Origin: Ktedonobacterales bacterium
GTDB lineage: Bacteria > Chloroflexota > Ktedonobacteria > Ktedonobacterales > JADMIN01
Direction of reading: 5' to 3'
DNA: 32,000 nucleotides
Assembly: GCA_030167145.1 (NCBI GenBank)
Contig: CP126532.1
Location: 1,800,001-1,832,000 of the forward strand
The translations under genes were made by a program, and so were the position numbers. A model generated the notes under the pieces. That model was not told the DNA's origin, searched no databases, and worked only from the letters and a program-made list of their open reading frames with translations. Positions 2,303 to 31,872 of the stretch are shown here, one piece after another (position 1 is the first letter of the stretch; each line of letters begins with the position of its first letter).

Positions 2303-2689
2303 TCAGCGAATCACCGTGACGGTGATGCCAGGCACGAGTGCGTTCCAGCTACGGTCAGTGGTCAGCGCCGCCAGGCCAAGCTGCTGCGCCAGCGCCAGGC
2401 AGGCTCTATCGCCGAATGACAACCCTGCGGCGCGAGTGAGCGGGCGGAGAAATCCCGCCGCGAATGCCAGGGCACTATCGAAATCCACGACCGTGATGCC
2501 GAGCGCGAGCGTTGTTGTCCGCGCCGCCGTCTCTGGGATGCCGCGCTCACGAAGCTTGGCCACCACTTCGGATAGGTTGACCGCGCTGATTACCGCGCCA
2601 GCGGCAAGGGCGGCGGCAACGGTAGCGCTGCCTGGCTCGTTATACAACAGCGCCAGCATGGCAGAGGCGTCGAGGACGGACTTACTCAC
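2303..2689 (-). CDS. vapC: PIN-domain ribonuclease toxin VapC
   Basis: The tracked ORF (2303..2815) is trimmed to the GTG at 2689, which overlaps the vapB stop in GTGAGTAA. The protein reads VSKSVLDASAMLALLYNEPG...VNLSEV...SFGDRACLALAQQLGLAALTTDRSW. This shows the PIN acidic-residue pattern (D near the N-terminus, E, D, TxD near the C-terminus). Confidence 0.85.
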   Translation of the reverse strand: MSKSVLDASAMLALLYNEPGSATVAAALAAGAVISAVNLSEVVAKLRERGIPETAARTTTLALGITVVDFDSALAFAAGFLRPLTRAAGLSFGDRACLALAQQLGLAALTTDRSWNALVPGITVTVIR

Positions 2690-2927
2690 GGTCGGCCTCG
2701 GCGTGGCGTTCCCGTACCAGTTCGTCGGCGGCGGAAGCCCCATCGGGGTCATACTGGCGCACGATCTCCTGCGCACGCTCGATAGCACGCTGAAGGGTGA
2801 AGATGCGCAGCTCACCGTTCTCTAGCTGAAGGATGACTTCGTCACCCACCTGGAGGCCCAGGGCGCGGCGATACTCAGCGGGTATGACGATACGGCCGCC
2901 CTCGGTCAGGCGCGTAACATCTGGCAT
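2682..2927 (-). CDS. vapB: AbrB/SpoVT/MazE-fold antitoxin VapB
   Basis: MPDVTRLTEGGRIVIPAEYRRALGLQVGDEVILQLENGELRI is a swapped-hairpin AbrB-like DNA-binding motif. It lies immediately upstream of the PIN gene and is overlap-coupled to it. Confidence 0.85.
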   Translation of the reverse strand: MPDVTRLTEGGRIVIPAEYRRALGLQVGDEVILQLENGELRIFTLQRAIERAQEIVRQYDPDGASAADELVRERHAEADRE

Positions 2928-8221: not shown

Positions 8222-8246
8222 GGGCGTCCACCGGACGCCCCTACGG
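8222..8246 (-). repeat. REP2 hairpin repeat copy (GGGCGTCC-ACC-GGACGCCC-CTACGG)
   Basis: Reverse complement of the CCGTAGGGGCGTCC-NNT-GGACGCCCG units at 27414 and 29835. It sits in the 54-nt gap between the GNAT stop (8241) and the carB start (8186). Confidence 0.8.
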
Positions 8247-12410: not shown

Positions 12411-13778
12411 CTATTCTCCCCGCTTCTGATCCGCGCCAGCGACTAGTTCCAGCGCCGCCATGCGAATCGCGACGCCGTTGGTCACCTGCTCTTCGATGAC
12501 CGACGCGTCGCCGTAGGCTACCGCCGGATCAATCTCCACGCCTTCATTCATCGGGCCTGGGTGCAGCACCAGCGCACCTGGATTCGCCAGCTTCAGCCGT
12601 TCCGGCGTCAGCCCCCACACTGCGCTATACTCGCGTATCGAAGGCAGCAGCCCCGCCTGCTGGCGCTCGCGCTGCAGCCGCAGCGCCATCACCACATCCG
12701 CGCCCTCCAGCGCCCGCTCGATATGCGGCTCCACGATCACCTCGCGCCGCGCATCCGTGCCAGGAACTGGCCGCGCGGCGTAGAGATCAGCGGCGGCGGG
12801 CGGCAGCAGCGTCGGCGGGCCGCACAGCACCACTGTCGCGCCCATCGCCGTCAGCGTCCAGATATTCGACCGCGCGACGCGGCTGTGCAGGATGTCGCCG
12901 AGAATCACGATACGCCTGCCCCGGACCGGACCCAACCGCCGCACAATCGTATATAAATCCAGCAGCGCCTGCGTGGGATGCGCGTGCCACCCGTCGCCCG
13001 CGTTCAACACCGAACCGTCAATATGCCGCGCGATTAAATCCGGCGCGCCCGCCTGGCTGGAGCGCACCACCACAATCCGCGCGCCCAACGCCTGAAGCGT
13101 GCGCACCGTATCTATCAGCGATTCACCCTTGGTGACGCTGCTCGCCGAAGCCGTCACATTGGTCACATCCGCGCCCAGCTTCTTGCCCGCTAGCTCGAAC
13201 GAGACGCGCGTGCGTGTGCTGTTCTCATAAAACAAATTGACCATCACCTTGCCGCGCAGCGTATCTAGCTTCGTCTCAGGCCGCGCCAGCGCCGCGCCCA
13301 TCGCGTCCGCCCGCGCGAACAGCGCGCCAATCTCGCTCGCGCTCCAATCGTCCACGTCCAGCAGATGCTTGCGCACGCCGTCGGCAGATGAGGGTGCGTG
13401 TGTCTGCTCCGCATGCCCATGTGCGGCTGGATTCCGCTCCTCCTCGATGATCTGCAGGCAGAGGTCAACGCATTCGTTGCAGATATGCACCCCACCCGGC
13501 CCGGCAATCATCGCATTCACCTGCTCACGGCTCTTGCCGCAAAAGGAGCAGCGCACCAGCCCGCCCACTTTCTCCTTATACGGGTCAGCGGCGGTGAGCA
13601 CGCGCGTATGCGCGGGTAGCGCCAGCGCCGATTCCGCGTTCGCCAGCACCTCGGTGAAGGCGTGCGTACACTCGTCGCAGACATAGACCCCGCCCGGCCC
13701 GGCGATCAGGCGCTGCACTTCGTTCTGCTCTTTGCCGCAGAACGAGCAGCGATACGTTATGCGTGTCGTCTTCGCCAT
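12411..13778 (-). CDS. pyrB: aspartate carbamoyltransferase catalytic chain fused to two N-terminal ClpX-type C4 zinc-ribbon domains
   Basis: The ATCase core (about 13376-12411) has [21 protein letters not shown] and [12 protein letters not shown]. The N-terminal 134 aa contain two units, [21 protein letters not shown] and [25 protein letters not shown], each C-x2-C-x19-C-x2-C. It is a single uninterrupted ORF with a GGAAGG RBS, 11 nt after the pyrR stop. Confidence 0.9.
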
Positions 13779-21925: not shown

Positions 21926-22264
21926 CTAGCGATTATCCCCATCGCCCTGGATCTGTCCGCGCTCCAGCCGCGAAAAGAGCTTCTCGATGTTCGCGGCGGC
22001 CACCTCCGCCAGTGTGAGATCAAGCTCCGTGCAGATCTGTGTGAGATACCACAACACATCGCCTAGCTCGTGCTTCAGCGCCTGCCGGTCTTCCTCGGCG
22101 AGATTGCCACCCTTATCGCGGAAGATTTTCTTGATCTTCCCCGCCACTTCACCCGCCTCATTCACCAGCCCCAGCGTTGGATACACAATCGCGCTATCCA
22201 TCGCAATCACATTCCACGTCTTGCGCGACTCCCGCTGATACGTCGCGAAATCTTCTATCTCCAT
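21926..22264 (-). CDS. MazG-like nucleotide pyrophosphohydrolase (small, single-domain)
   Basis: Trimmed to ATG 22264. LGLVNEAGEVAGKIKKIFRDKG...LKHELGDVLWYLTQICTELDL is the EExxE...ELGD MazG signature. Confidence 0.8.
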   Translation of the reverse strand: MEIEDFATYQRESRKTWNVIAMDSAIVYPTLGLVNEAGEVAGKIKKIFRDKGGNLAEEDRQALKHELGDVLWYLTQICTELDLTLAEVAAANIEKLFSRLERGQIQGDGDNR

Positions 22265-22502
22265 GTCGCGTTTCTCTTTCACTATTTCCCCACAGAGCGG
22301 CATCTCATGCCTGCCAGTATAGCAAGGTGAAGCAACCGCATCGCGACGCATGCCTGTCTGGAACGCCTCACAGGATTCAGCATGGGCGACAAACTCCCAA
22401 TGTATAGTGCCGGGCTGGCATGTCGCGTGCTTCATGCGGGGCGGACGTCAGCGCCCGGCGACACCAGATCTATCCGGGCCGGTAGATGGGAGGGGGCCTG
22501 CT

Positions 22503-27413: not shown

Positions 27414-27462
27414 CCGTAGGGGCGTCCGGTGGACGCCCGTCGCTCGGTGGACGCCCGTCGCG
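27414..27462 (+). repeat. REP2 hairpin repeat with an 18-nt tandem duplication of its 3' half
   Basis: CCGTAG-GGGCGTCC-ggt-GGACGCCC-gtcgc is followed by a second cggtggacgcccgtcgc unit. The two units (27427-27444 and 27445-27462) match at 17 of 18 positions. Confidence 0.8.
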
Positions 27463-28746: not shown

Positions 28747-28895
28747 CTGGACATCAGCGCCGCCAACTACGCCGCACTTATGAAATGCTCTCGTGATAGA
28801 ATGTCCTTGGCAATCACGATTTCTGTTACCGTTCTGTCGTCAGACACACATTGCTAAGATGCGCACATGCCGCTGCACTCGCATGTGAGAGGTTG

Positions 28896-29624
28896 ATGCC
28901 AAATCATCTCGACTACCGCCGCCGTCTTCTATCCATCGTCACCGCCTTCCAAGACCCAACAGCCGCCGACCATGTCCGTGCCCGCCGCCTCGTCGAACGC
29001 CTCTACCACGATCCTAGACGCCGCTTGCAAACCTTAGATGACCTTGTCTGGGGTGGCTTTGTAAGCGAGCTTACCGATTCCGTGTTCTATGAGCTCCCCG
29101 AATACCTGCAAGCTACACGCGAAGTGCTGCTCCACGGCTCGACGGAACTGCATCGCGCATACCTCAGTTTTGACTTTCGTTCAGACTTCACCGAGGTCGA
29201 ACACAACTGGCATGCCCAATTGCTAGATTTGGCAGTATGGCTCCAGCGCGGCGTTTTCGATAACGCTGGGGCATCTCAAGCAGAGTACGAGCGCCGCGTC
29301 GAGACAATCTCCGCCCTTTCGCATCTCACACCGCCACCTCCCCATGTGGGCGAGGAGACCCTATACCATTACATCCTACGAACCGCCGAGGCCGTACTCA
29401 CCGGTATTGAATCCAGGAGTTTCGGCCAGATCCCCTATCTTGTGGCGGCGGCTCCCTGGGTCCAGGTTTATTGGAACCCCGACAATGCGAATGATCGTCC
29501 CTGGCCTGATGCCACCGCAAGCGTTTCCTGGGCCGAACGCGCGCTGCGCTCGATCATACGCCAGGAGTGGGTATGGGTGACATGGCAGATTACGAATGCC
29601 GCATATCTCATCTCAATCCACTGA
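28896..29624 (+). CDS. hypothetical protein (242 aa), no recognisable domain
   Basis: Start set at ATG 28896 (GAGAGG upstream). The coding look is plausible: no Arg bias, and mixed Trp/Tyr/Glu composition. An extended -10-like TGaTAGAAT lies at 28794-28802. The region looks AT-richer than its neighbours and uses TTA Leu codons. Confidence 0.5.
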   Translation: MPNHLDYRRRLLSIVTAFQDPTAADHVRARRLVERLYHDPRRRLQTLDDLVWGGFVSELTDSVFYELPEYLQATREVLLHGSTELHRAYLSFDFRSDFTEVEHNWHAQLLDLAVWLQRGVFDNAGASQAEYERRVETISALSHLTPPPPHVGEETLYHYILRTAEAVLTGIESRSFGQIPYLVAAAPWVQVYWNPDNANDRPWPDATASVSWAERALRSIIRQEWVWVTWQITNAAYLISIH

Positions 29625-29834
29625 TTGATCCGTCATCCCAACATGTGTGGCGTCATTTGCCCATACGCCACGCATACCGAACCGAGATTACCCGCGGCAT
29701 TTATGCCGCTCGCCGGCAATTGGAGTTACACACCGGGCATTCATGCCATCATCGCTGTGCTCCGGCCATTGATGGCCGAGGCTGGCCCCCGCGCGTGATA
29801 CCATATTGCTACCGCTCGCCCGCGCGGCATCCAT

Positions 29835-29860
29835 CCGTAGGGGCGTCCACTGGACGCCCG
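29835..29860 (+). repeat. REP2 hairpin repeat copy flanked by direct repeats
   Basis: The core is CCGTAG-GGGCGTCC-act-GGACGCCC-G. cgcggcatcc occurs on both sides (29823-29832 and 29861-29870). With the core end included, it extends to gcccgcgcggcatcc. Confidence 0.8.
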
Positions 29861-29894
29861 CGCGGCATCCTATCCCATCCCAATAAGGCAACCC

Positions 29895-30716
29895 ATGCAA
29901 GACGACACCCTACAACTCGCCCCCACCGCCCTGCCCCTGCGCCACGTCAGCGCCACCCGCTACGTCACACCGCTGCGCGAGGGTGGCTCCGTCCCCGCCA
30001 TCGTCGAAGCCGACGACGACGGCCTCTACGTCCTCAAGTTTCGCGGCGCCGCCCAGGGCGTCAAAGCGCTCATCGCCGAACTCGTCGCCGGTGAGATTGG
30101 CCGCGCGCTCGGCCTGCTCGTCCCCGAAATCGTCTACATAGACCTTGACCCCATCCTCGCCCGCTCCGAAGCCCACGGCGAGATTCAAGACCTCATCCGC
30201 GCCAGCGCTGGACTCAACATCGCCCTCGATTTCCTCCCCGGCGCGCTCGCCTTCGACCCGCTCGCCAGCCCGACGCCAGACCCCGCGCTCGCCTCCGCCA
30301 TCGTCTGGTTCGACGCCTACACCACCAACGTAGACCGCACCGCCCGCAACACCAACATGCTCTGCTGGCATCAGCGCCTCTGGCTCATAGACCACGGCGC
30401 GGCCCTCTACTTCCACCACGGCCGCAGCGTCTATCCACCGCAGGGCCGCCTGCCCTTCCCCAGCATCGCCGACCACGTGCTGCTGCCTCATGCCACTGAC
30501 CTCGCCGCCGCCGACACCGCTGCGCACGAACGGCTGTCACCCGCGATACTGGCCGCCATCACCAGCGCCATCCCCGCCGCCTGGCTCGACACCTCACCCG
30601 ACGCCGCCAGCATAGACGATCAGCGCGCCGCCTATCTGGACTACCTCACCGCACGCCTCGCTGCGTCTCATCTCTTCGTCGAGGAGGCAACCCATGCCCG
30701 CGCGCGGCTCGTTTGA
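29895..30716 (+). CDS. HipA-like (HipA_C-type) serine/threonine kinase-fold protein
   Basis: A catalytic-loop-like NVDRTARNTNML and the metal-binding LIDHGAAL are present. Upstream, YVLKFRGAAQGVKALIAELV carries a candidate ATP-binding Lys. The gene overlaps the DUF3037 gene by 23 nt. Confidence 0.65.
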   Translation: MQDDTLQLAPTALPLRHVSATRYVTPLREGGSVPAIVEADDDGLYVLKFRGAAQGVKALIAELVAGEIGRALGLLVPEIVYIDLDPILARSEAHGEIQDLIRASAGLNIALDFLPGALAFDPLASPTPDPALASAIVWFDAYTTNVDRTARNTNMLCWHQRLWLIDHGAALYFHHGRSVYPPQGRLPFPSIADHVLLPHATDLAAADTAAHERLSPAILAAITSAIPAAWLDTSPDAASIDDQRAAYLDYLTARLAASHLFVEEATHARARLV

Positions 30717-31257
30717 CTACGCCATCATCCGCATCATCCCGCGTGTCGAGCGTGGCGAGCGCATCAACGTCGGCGTCGTGCTGCACTCCCGCGAGCACGC
30801 CTTCCTGGCCGCGCGCATCGCCTTCGATCCCGCGCGCCTCCTTGCCCTCGCCCCCGAACTATCGCCCACCGAAATCGCCGAGATCGCCGCCCACCTCGAT
30901 AGCATCCCTCGCATCTGCGCGGGCGGCGAAGACGCTGGCCCCATCGGACGCCTCACCCTGGCCGAACGCTTCCACTGGCTCGTCTCGCCGCGCAGCACCA
31001 TCATCCAGCCCTCGCGCGTCCATTCCGGCATCTGCGCCGACCCCACCGCTGCCCTCGATCACCTCGCCCGCATCCTGCTTCCCACTCCCACCAGCATCCC
31101 GGCTAGCATCATCCTCCCTCGCGCTGACTACGATACCGCCCTCGCGACATTGCGCCGCTCCCTCGCGCCCAATCGCACCCCCGCGCAGATGCGCCGCGAC
31201 ATCACCGCCGCCCTCGCCGACCTTGAGCGCATGAGCAATAGCGAACGCCCAGAGTAA
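30694..31257 (+). CDS. DUF3037 domain protein with a C-terminal extension of about 60 aa
   Basis: FDYAIIRIIPRVERGERINVGVVLHSRE...GPIGRLTLAERFHWLVSPRSTIIQPSRVHSG matches my memory of the DUF3037 signature. Confidence 0.7.
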   Translation: MPARGSFDYAIIRIIPRVERGERINVGVVLHSREHAFLAARIAFDPARLLALAPELSPTEIAEIAAHLDSIPRICAGGEDAGPIGRLTLAERFHWLVSPRSTIIQPSRVHSGICADPTAALDHLARILLPTPTSIPASIILPRADYDTALATLRRSLAPNRTPAQMRRDITAALADLERMSNSERPE

Positions 31258-31268
31258 AGGCAAAGACG

Positions 31269-31820
31269 ATGACGCACCTTCAGCAACCGACTACGGCGAA
31301 AACTTGGCGGCGCGTCTGGTGGCGGCGGACGCTCCAGCGCACGCTCACTTCGCTGCACATCGCATGTTATCGCGCAACTAGCGGACTCATCGGCCATCGC
31401 CTGGGACCACTGCCCAATCTGCTGCTCACCACCACTGGCCGCCGATCAGGCAAGCCACGCACCACACCCCTCACCTACATCGCCACTGATGGCCTGCTCG
31501 CCCTCATCGCCTCGAACTTCGGCAGCCGCACTCCGCCGCAGTGGTATCGCAACCTCCTCGCCCACCCCCAGGCGACCGTGCAGCTCAAGCGTCGCCGCTG
31601 GTCCGTCCACGCGCGTCCCGCCACCTCCTCCGAGCATGAGCGCATCTGGTCGGCGGCGCTGGTAATCTGGCCTGCCTGGGCCAGCTACGCCGACCGCGCC
31701 CAACGCGACATCCCCATCGTCGTGCTCGATCCTGCGCGCGAAACTCCGCATCCCCCGCCGCACGTGCAGACATCCAACCCCAAACCCCACACCGACACAA
31801 ATCGAGCAATAGCGGAATAA
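31269..31820 (+). CDS. DUF385-type (deazaflavin/F420-dependent nitroreductase family, split beta-barrel) oxidoreductase
   Basis: Contains LLLTTTGRRSGKPRTTPLTYIATDGLLALIASNFGSRTPPQWYRNLLAHPQATVQL. It starts 11 nt after the DUF3037 stop. Confidence 0.75.
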   Translation: MTHLQQPTTAKTWRRVWWRRTLQRTLTSLHIACYRATSGLIGHRLGPLPNLLLTTTGRRSGKPRTTPLTYIATDGLLALIASNFGSRTPPQWYRNLLAHPQATVQLKRRRWSVHARPATSSEHERIWSAALVIWPAWASYADRAQRDIPIVVLDPARETPHPPPHVQTSNPKPHTDTNRAIAE

Positions 31821-31843: not shown

Positions 31844-31872
31844 TTGACATTCTACATGAAGCGTCGCATAAT
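31844..31872 (+). promoter_or_regulatory. candidate promoter (TTGACA-17 nt-CATAAT)
   Basis: A consensus -35 TTGACA is at 31844-31849, followed by a 17-nt spacer and CATAAT at 31867-31872. It sits in an AT-richer spacer about 70 nt upstream of the next ORF. Confidence 0.5.

Follow-up and report, generated by a model that had tools for sequence, protein, structure and literature searches.

Overlapping HipA_2 kinase and DUF3037 genes on a Ktedonobacterales chromosome: a candidate minimal toxin-antitoxin pair related to HipAD and PDC-M66

The kinase and DUF3037 genes overlap and occur together across phyla

A pair of overlapping genes lies near the end of a 32,000-nucleotide (nt) stretch of the chromosome of a Ktedonobacterales bacterium (assembly GCA_030167145.1, contig CP126532.1, positions 1,800,001 to 1,832,000 of the forward strand). 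This whole stretch is called the window, and positions are counted from its first base. The upstream gene encodes a HipA-like kinase and the downstream gene a protein with a DUF3037 domain. The original prediction, which was made from the letters and their open reading frames (ORFs), described genes of 273 and 187 amino acids (aa) with a 23-nt overlap. The ORF list, the sequence and the gene calls of the independent Joint Genome Institute (JGI) annotation of the source contig agree on this description; the JGI calls are identical for the kinase, the DUF3037 gene and the reductase gene that follows. The pair carries the locus tags OJF49_001711 and OJF49_001712, by exact protein match to the source contig. 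The features of the pair are as follows.

29895..30716, + strand: HipA_2-family atypical Ser/Thr-kinase-like gene, 273 aa, ATG start, presumed toxin/effector (ORF list, Pfam, PADLOC)
30694..31257, + strand: DUF3037 gene, 187 aa, ATG start (ORF list)
30694..30716, + strand: overlap of the two genes, 23 nt, taken as the translational-coupling junction (sequence)
30681..30687, + strand: Shine-Dalgarno sequence GAGGAGG for the DUF3037 gene, within kinase codons V262-E-E-A265

Related loci were fetched from 185,579 species genomes with patterns drawn from the DUF3037 alignment alone, so that the kinase could not bias the retrieval. The best 80 of at least 586 confirmed stretches were examined, and residue conservation was scored over 78 independent loci. 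In all 80 of these best loci, the DUF3037 gene was directly preceded by a HipA_2-type kinase gene in the same orientation. These loci span at least ten phyla and come from Chloroflexota, Actinomycetota, Acidobacteriota, Myxococcota, Gammaproteobacteria, Nitrospirota, Bacteroidota, Ignavibacteriota, Abditibacteriota and others. In the reverse check, DUF3037 lay downstream of six of the six kinases found by exact sequence, and the annotated plasmid kinase hits (Bacteroides, Parabacteroides, Chondrinema) also had DUF3037 downstream. The pairwise identities of kinase and DUF3037 were correlated across loci (Pearson r = 0.59), as expected of a co-inherited pair. The adjacency of kinase and DUF3037 is beyond chance, and the neighbourhood survey that had been proposed as a check on the pairing came out in its favor.

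The junction between the two genes is conserved as well. The overlap was exactly 23 nt in 43 of the 79 scorable junctions (the 78 loci and the window); Bacteroides, Blastocatellia and Chloroflexia loci show this length too. It was 4-20 nt in a further 32, and one junction had a 1-nt gap; the three remaining junctions (79, 91 and 433 nt) resemble frameshifted or run-on kinase ORFs. The constancy of the 23-nt figure follows from the way the kinase stop codon is built, since TGA (30714-30716) consists of the last T of DUF3037 Phe7 (TTT) and the GA of Asp8 (GAC). The near-invariant C-terminal V-E-E-A of the kinase is encoded by GAGGAGGC, and this coding sequence places a Shine-Dalgarno core just before the DUF3037 start. 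The distance from the end of the GGAGG core to the DUF3037 ATG is 6 nt in the window and 5-6 nt overall. In 71 of 78 loci a Shine-Dalgarno-like motif lay within the 20 nt that precede the DUF3037 start, and the identical GAGGAGG context recurs across phyla. The conserved overlap with its embedded Shine-Dalgarno sequence would couple synthesis of the partner to synthesis of the kinase at the level of translation. As a separate observation, the start codons of the kinase (29884-29899) and of DUF3037 (30683-30698) have the 12-nt context GGCAACCCATGC in common, either by chance or as a shared initiation context.

The kinase retains a HipA-like catalytic core

The kinase matched the Pfam family HipA_2 (PF20613; E 1.4e-16, 61 bits, with a cutoff of 27 bits) and the PADLOC model PDC-M66A (E 7.2e-22, profile positions 7-244 of 270). 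The Pfam scan gave no kinase match to HipA_N, Couple_hipA or HipA_C (PF07804) at E <= 0.1. The original prediction was right that the protein lacks the N-terminal HipA domains; its HipA_C-like core is recognizable in fold and motifs and fails at the sequence level, where the family is HipA_2.

The kinase was modelled with AlphaFold2 (AF2), and the model had a predicted local distance difference test score (pLDDT) of 80 and a predicted template modelling (TM) score, pTM, of 0.83. Foldseek matched it to Fam20C, Helicobacter pylori CtkA, PI4KIIalpha and VPS34 (E 2e-4 to 1e-2), the best matches being the protein kinases Fam20C and CtkA. HipA (4pu5) followed at E 0.015. A kinase-fold match had been named as a point on which the idea could fail, and both the HipA_2 profile and the structure search provided one. 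Fam20C and CtkA are the closest solved structures to the kinase model and have an atypical protein-kinase fold (Foldseek E 2e-4 to 1e-3, TM about 0.5). Unlike the window protein, they are secreted or eukaryotic-type kinases without a DUF3037 partner, and at 12-14% identity they are structural analogues only. A sequence-profile search of the PDB with the kinase found no relative and no Hip kinase, and the link between the kinase and HipA is for this reason drawn at the level of fold and motifs only. The motifs are listed below.

29979..29990, + strand: Gly-rich loop E29-G30-G31-S32; E29, G30 and S32 each present in 77 of 78 loci
30036..30038, + strand: Lys48 in LKFRG, putative ATP-anchoring lysine; 78 of 78 loci
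30327..30356, + strand: catalytic loop N145-V-D147-R-T-A-R-N152-T-N154; D147, N152 and N154 invariant in 78 of 78 loci
30387..30398, + strand: I165-D166-H167-G168, Mg-binding "DFG-like" motif; D166 invariant in 78 of 78 loci

The catalytic stretch NVDRTARNTNML comprises residues 145-156 and lies at nt 30327-30362, exactly where it had been placed. The LIDHGAAL motif is also real and comprises residues 164-171; its position is 30384-30407, which is 3 nt off the earlier estimate of about 30381-30404. The E, G and S of the Gly-rich loop are invariant in alignment A4, and Ser32 may be the autophosphorylation site. Judging from these residues, the kinases of this clade appear to be active enzymes under strong constraint.

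The partner is a DUF3037 domain with a clade-specific tail

The second protein divides into two parts.

30694..31083, + strand: DUF3037 domain, residues 1-130, presumed antitoxin/regulator (Pfam, AF2)
31084..31257, + strand: clade-specific C-terminal tail, residues 131-187 and stop codon (AF2, relatives P0004, P0005, P0007, P0014 and P0030)

Residues 9-126 matched Pfam DUF3037 (PF11236) with an E value of 4e-40, which upholds an assignment first made from the sequence pattern. The match to PADLOC PDC-M66B (E 1.8e-7) covered profile positions 3-125 of 281 only. Across residues 1-130 the AF2 pLDDT was above 90. The DUF3037 model had no significant fold match in the PDB (best E 0.8, TM 0.19), nor did a sequence-profile search of the PDB give one, and a weak likeness to a few unnamed viral proteins was seen (E about 1e-4, TM about 0.45). 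Because DUF3037 has no PDB match by either route, its proposed mimicry of HipS or HipA N-subdomain 1 is unsupported. Eight residues of the domain do not vary in any of the 78 loci: Y9, R20, E22, N25, R92, W95, S101 and H110. At 50% identity the DUF3037 family falls into 2,666 clusters (E <= 1e-3), and 159 of these resemble the window protein (E <= 1e-30).

Typical partners are 126-143 aa long (median 130.5), and the extra C-terminal tail of about 60 aa that had been reported for the window protein is present in a few close relatives only, namely those listed above. Over its 57 residues the tail begins with a disordered linker and continues with two predicted helices (143-156 and 163-183), with block-mean pLDDT values of 46-82. 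Nothing in Pfam matched the tail significantly (best DUF5955, E 0.021).

The pair is a divergent relative of experimentally tested systems

The original prediction regarded the pairing as uncharacterised, and this statement is out of date. DUF3037 is strongly associated with HipA-like kinases, and PADLOC names the pair PDC-M66 (PLoS Biol 2025, PMC12548924). In the Retron-Sda1 operon, the kinase/DUF3037 pair alone defends against phage Bas51, and the reverse transcriptase (RT) and noncoding RNA (ncRNA) are dispensable; deletion of the kinase abolishes defence, and deletion of DUF3037 is toxic (PMC12548924). DefensePredictor (DeWeirdt, Mahoney & Laub, Science 2026) led to validation of the E. 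coli system DS-6, renamed HipAD, in which DS-6A is a HipA-related kinase and DS-6B contains DUF3037 and DUF1829 (PMC13092281). A mutant of DS-6A in a predicted catalytic residue, D139A according to the supplementary strain list, loses defence. The AlphaFold3 model of the DS-6A/DS-6B complex had an interface predicted TM score (ipTM) of 0.76-0.79, and DNA binding by DS-6B was predicted more weakly (PMC13092281). According to the same paper, HipAD was also found independently in the 2025 study of E. coli prophage defence systems by Brenes & Laub. The earlier guess of a kinase toxin with DUF3037 as antidote, in a possible defence module, matches these experiments on distant homologues (PMC12548924, PMC13092281), and the overall interpretation is in this sense partly supported.

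The window pair was compared residue by residue with DS-6 only, using the sequences of DS-6A (WP_000389051.1) and DS-6B (WP_000210934.1) from Table S8 of PMC13092281. The two systems share a HipA_2 kinase gene followed on the same strand by an overlapping DUF3037 gene, with overlaps of 4 nt in DS-6 and 23 nt in the window. The kinases are 26% identical (E 8e-11, hhalign probability 97.7%), and their catalytic N-x-D-R-T and L-I-D-H motifs align: window D147 falls on DS-6A D139, LIDHG (with D166) on LIDHN, and Lys48 on the K of YVLKSK. Between the DUF3037 domain and the N-terminal domain of DS-6B, identity is 25% (BLASTP E 5e-6). DS-6A and DS-6B also match PDC-M66A and PDC-M66B. Low identity is one difference between the systems. 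Another is the second protein, since DS-6B is a 275-aa protein whose DUF1829-like C-terminal domain is a predicted DNA binder, whereas the window partner lacks this domain and has the two-helix tail instead; hhalign aligned residues 7-131 only and found no similarity between the tail and the DS-6B C-terminal domain. Finally, the window pair is chromosomal and sits among Ktedonobacterales housekeeping genes, whereas HipAD comes from E. coli and was found in a prophage-defence study.

The Retron-Sda1 pair has the same two domains in the same order (HTH, HipA, DUF3037, ncRNA, RT, where HTH is a helix-turn-helix gene). It acts as a stand-alone system, and the general association of DUF3037 with HipA-like kinases that was reported along with it is reproduced independently in the relatives of the window pair. 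Unlike the window pair, which has no RT, ncRNA or HTH gene nearby, it lies inside a retron operon in which an HTH gene comes first. Its DUF3037 protein has a C-terminus similar to a retron type III-A1 DNA-binding protein, and no such domain is present in the window partner. Both window proteins match the two PDC-M66 models (PADLOC-DB v2.0.0), but the window partner lacks the C-terminal half of the 281-position M66B, and PDC-M66 is itself a bioinformatic candidate.

With HipBA, HipBST and the short Hip kinases (HipG/M/I/J), the window pair shares the Gly-rich loop, the catalytic Asp/Asn, the Mg-binding Asp and, presumably, the arrangement of a kinase toxin with a separately encoded neutraliser. 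Short core Hip kinases without HipA N-subdomain 1, whose antitoxin gene lies downstream, are documented and set a precedent for the window architecture; the kinase/DUF3037 pairing is not described there (Gerdes et al. 2021, PMC8262856). In contrast to canonical HipBA, the window kinase is without HipA_C, HipA_N and Couple_hipA matches, and no HipB (XRE-type HTH) gene lies upstream. In contrast to HipBST, the DUF3037 partner has no fold match to HipS or HipA N-subdomain 1.

The pair is probably a kinase toxin and its DUF3037 antitoxin

The sequence comparisons and the model establish both domains, a kinase fold, intact catalytic residues, obligatory adjacency, a conserved overlap with a Shine-Dalgarno sequence, co-variation of the two proteins and homology to the validated systems. 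The window pair has the components of a HipAD/PDC-M66-type system: a HipA_2 kinase, a DUF3037 partner, their gene order and an intact Asp equivalent to D139 of DS-6A. The pair is a divergent relative of PDC-M66, of E. coli DS-6 (HipAD) and of the Retron-Sda1-linked pair, and the pairing was already known. We consider it probable, with moderate confidence, that the two genes encode a kinase toxin and a DUF3037 antitoxin of the HipAD/PDC-M66 kind, translationally coupled and in minimal form.

In such a system, the free 273-aa kinase, an active atypical Ser/Thr-type enzyme, would phosphorylate a conserved cellular target and thereby arrest growth. The DUF3037 domain, whose translation would be tied to that of the kinase by the overlapping start and the embedded Shine-Dalgarno sequence, would bind the kinase and hold it inactive. 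A perturbation would then free the kinase; in the characterised relatives this perturbation is phage infection, and the outcome would resemble abortive infection. The toxicity of the kinase, its direct neutralisation, its target and its trigger are presumed from these relatives. On the same analogy, the Ktedonobacterales pair may behave like its homologues of about 25% identity, and a defence role for the window clade is plausible.

Several observations weigh against this interpretation. Because identity to the tested systems is only 25-26%, we can only infer function by transfer from them. The match to PDC-M66B covers the N-terminal 44% of that profile only, and the window partner is without a C-terminal putative DNA-binding domain of the DS-6B/Sda1 type; this domain may be a trait of the tested examples and not a defining feature of the family, since most relatives are about 130 aa long. 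For a defence or toxin-antitoxin gene, the kinase shows unusual conservation (mean identity 0.62 within phyla and 0.59 between phyla). The pair sits among housekeeping genes (the pyr operon, a peptidase, ABC transporters) with no prophage or evident defence island, and a prophage, mobile-element or defence-island location, which is typical of such systems but not defining, was not found for it. Carriage of the window-type clade by phages or plasmids, a candidate that we considered, is essentially absent: no DUF3037 hit of this clade was obtained among IMG/VR viral contigs, and the kinase gave one weak match among 50,697 phage records and 8 matches among 72,556 plasmids. Given the setting of the pair among chromosomal housekeeping genes, its rarity on mobile elements and its strong conservation, a physiological role outside immunity is a real alternative.

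A physiological switch of this kind would be, in this strongly conserved clade of soil bacteria, a chromosomal kinase with DUF3037 as its regulatory subunit, controlling growth or translation under stress (starvation, dormancy) as a persistence-type module or signalling pair, with no part in phage defence. Besides the scarcity on mobile elements, it is favored by neighborhoods that are variable and of a housekeeping or metabolic kind in the seven annotated contexts, by the very strong conservation, with invariance of both catalytic and partner residues, and by the small size of most partners, which are without a DNA-binding domain. The nearest neighbor of a locus was in the same phylum for 68 of 78 loci, which fits mostly within-phylum inheritance. 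Nevertheless, both tested relatives are stand-alone defence systems, and both window proteins match models of the PADLOC defence candidate PDC-M66. The flanks are unconserved even among Chloroflexota, and the spread of the module over the species genomes searched is patchy, both being typical of accessory modules. The location carries less weight than it might, as many validated defence systems sit outside defence islands (PMC13092281). We regard the physiological switch as unlikely, though it deserves serious consideration.

A further possibility, which we put forward tentatively and also hold to be rather unlikely, is that the window is one example of a minimal chromosomal clade with deep conservation (about 159 clusters, at least ten phyla, about 60% identity) in which a bare 130-aa DUF3037 domain controls the kinase without a DNA-binding module. 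If this were so, DUF3037 would neutralise or sense in a way that differs from HipB and HipS; its invariant basic-Ser/Thr loop P99-R-S101-T102 could, for instance, make it a pseudosubstrate. The clade might also have growth arrest in soil bacteria as a conserved physiological function, in place of phage defence.

The pair might also be a selfish addiction cassette, one whose own loss is lethal through post-segregational killing and which brings the host no benefit. The module does consist of two genes, is self-contained and translationally coupled, and stands in variable contexts; loss of DUF3037 is toxic in a relative (PMC12548924), and megaplasmid copies occur occasionally. Set against this are its rarity on plasmids and phages, the defence conferred by its relatives, and the identity of about 60% over at least ten phyla with all catalytic residues invariant. 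Such conservation implies sustained purifying selection on function and not the decay often seen in chromosomal addiction cassettes, and we judge an addiction cassette to be improbable.

Very improbable is a small-molecule or lipid kinase working with DUF3037 as an enzyme of a metabolic pathway, possibly tied to the F420H2 reductase gene 11 nt downstream, a proposal for which speak the fold matches to the lipid kinases PI4KIIalpha and VPS34 and the enzyme-like invariant polar residues of DUF3037 (R20, E22, N25, R92, S101, H110), which would make up its active site, and against which speak the protein kinases Fam20C and CtkA as top fold matches, the toxin/antitoxin behavior of the relatives in E. 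coli, the lack of any recurring metabolic gene, and a reductase relative in one of 80 loci, on the opposite strand.

To return to the toxin-antitoxin pair, the systems tested so far come from E. coli and from a retron-bearing environmental isolate, and the soil phyla (Chloroflexota, Acidobacteriota, Myxococcota, Actinomycetota and others) hold the module in a form that is far more conserved. A partner reduced to the DUF3037 domain alone suggests that the conserved element handling the kinase is this domain and not one of the variable C-terminal domains. The core of the system would be the bare DUF3037 domain together with the conserved coupled junction. For neither protein family did a sequence search detect a solved structure. 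The candidate residues to mutate are K48, D147, N152 and D166 of the kinase and the enzyme-like invariant set R20, E22, N25, R92, W95, S101 and H110 of DUF3037.

The surroundings of the pair are variable

The window is ordinary chromosome and contains pyrR-pyrB-pyrC-carA-carB and genes for a GNAT protein, an M20 peptidase, a BNR protein, MazG, GT87-like membrane proteins and a TPR protein. Downstream in the source contig there follow ABC transporters, a luciferase-like oxidoreductase and a methyltransferase. No tRNA was found in the window, and no integrase or phage gene was seen in the window context. The gene next to the pair is the following.

31269..31820, + strand: F420H2-type reductase gene, 183 aa, 11 nt after the DUF3037 gene (ORF list)

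Its product matched Pfam F420H2_quin_red (PF04075) with an E value of 2.7e-35 and also TIGR00026. The DUF385-type oxidoreductase that had been reported as the next gene is thus present at the given distance, and its rarity at the related loci removes it from the module and speaks against a functional link. A link to the upstream 257-aa ORF (28851-29624), which has no Pfam or NCBIfam match, or to the TPR gene was likewise rejected, neither having relatives in 80 loci. All-versus-all clustering of flanking ORFs revealed no recurrent third gene, with the best cluster reaching 16 of 81 loci, none of them the window. Variable flanks and the lack of a recurrent third gene are as expected of a self-contained module.

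The other six annotated contexts differ from one another and hold mainly metabolic or housekeeping genes. STAND-type NTPase regulators adjoin the pair in two of the six, and an IS605-type element lies about 5.6 kb off in one. In loci L087 (1-5654) and L088 (1-3789), large STAND-type NTPase/TPR regulators (NB-ARC/AAA_16/HTH_77, MalT-like) were found a few kb upstream of the pair; they may be common LuxR/LAL regulators or else defence genes of the Avs type. In L084 (9195-10416; Blastocatellia) and L086 (13266-15310; Chloroflexia), genes for a RimI-type acetyltransferase and a TsaD-family (tsaB-like) protein lie 0-5 kb from the pair, in two different phyla; in L086, TsaE and a class-I aminoacyl-tRNA synthetase are close by too. 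The TsaD family acts in t6A tRNA modification, and HipA-family kinases target the translation apparatus. With two loci, these translation-gene neighbors may be coincidence.

Upstream of the kinase start, by 35-55 nt, lies the perfect palindrome GGGCGTCCA-C-TGGACGCCC (29841-29859), flanked by identical 16-nt direct repeats (CGCCCGCGCGGCATCC, at 29817 and 29855). In the general form GGGCGTCC-N3-GGACGCCC, three intergenic copies are present in the window (8222-8240, 27420-27438 and 29841-29859), with 0.03 expected. None was found in 81 related loci. Since the palindrome recurs elsewhere in the window and is absent from the related loci, it is a genome-specific element of the repetitive extragenic palindromic (REP) type, and its role as an autoregulatory operator of the pair was rejected.

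A search for sigma-70 promoters and intrinsic terminators around the pair gave nothing above the shuffled expectation. The sole strong sigma-70-like match of the region (31844-31872, + strand; TTGACA-17-CATAAT, 11 of 12 positions) lies after the reductase gene and before the next ORF. The arrangement is compatible with one transcript of kinase, DUF3037 and reductase that ends before this match.

Other observations in the window

A MazG-type nucleotide pyrophosphohydrolase ORF (21926-22435, - strand; Pfam MazG E 4.6e-11) lies about 7.5 kb from the pair and is positionally unrelated to it. At 2303-2927 (- strand) there is likely a vapBC-type toxin-antitoxin pair, in which the start of a PIN-domain ORF (2303-2815; Pfam PIN E 1.1e-14) is overlapped by an 81-aa ORF (2682-2927) that resembles an AbrB/SpoVT-type antitoxin by eye. 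The aspartate carbamoyltransferase (pyrB) ORF (12411-13778, - strand) is extended at its N-terminus by about 135 aa, which contain two ClpX-type C4 zinc fingers (CSFCGK...CDEC and CSFCGK...CNEC). The extension matched Pfam zf-C4_ClpX in two stretches (E 8.7e-36), an unusual fusion for an enzyme of pyrimidine biosynthesis.

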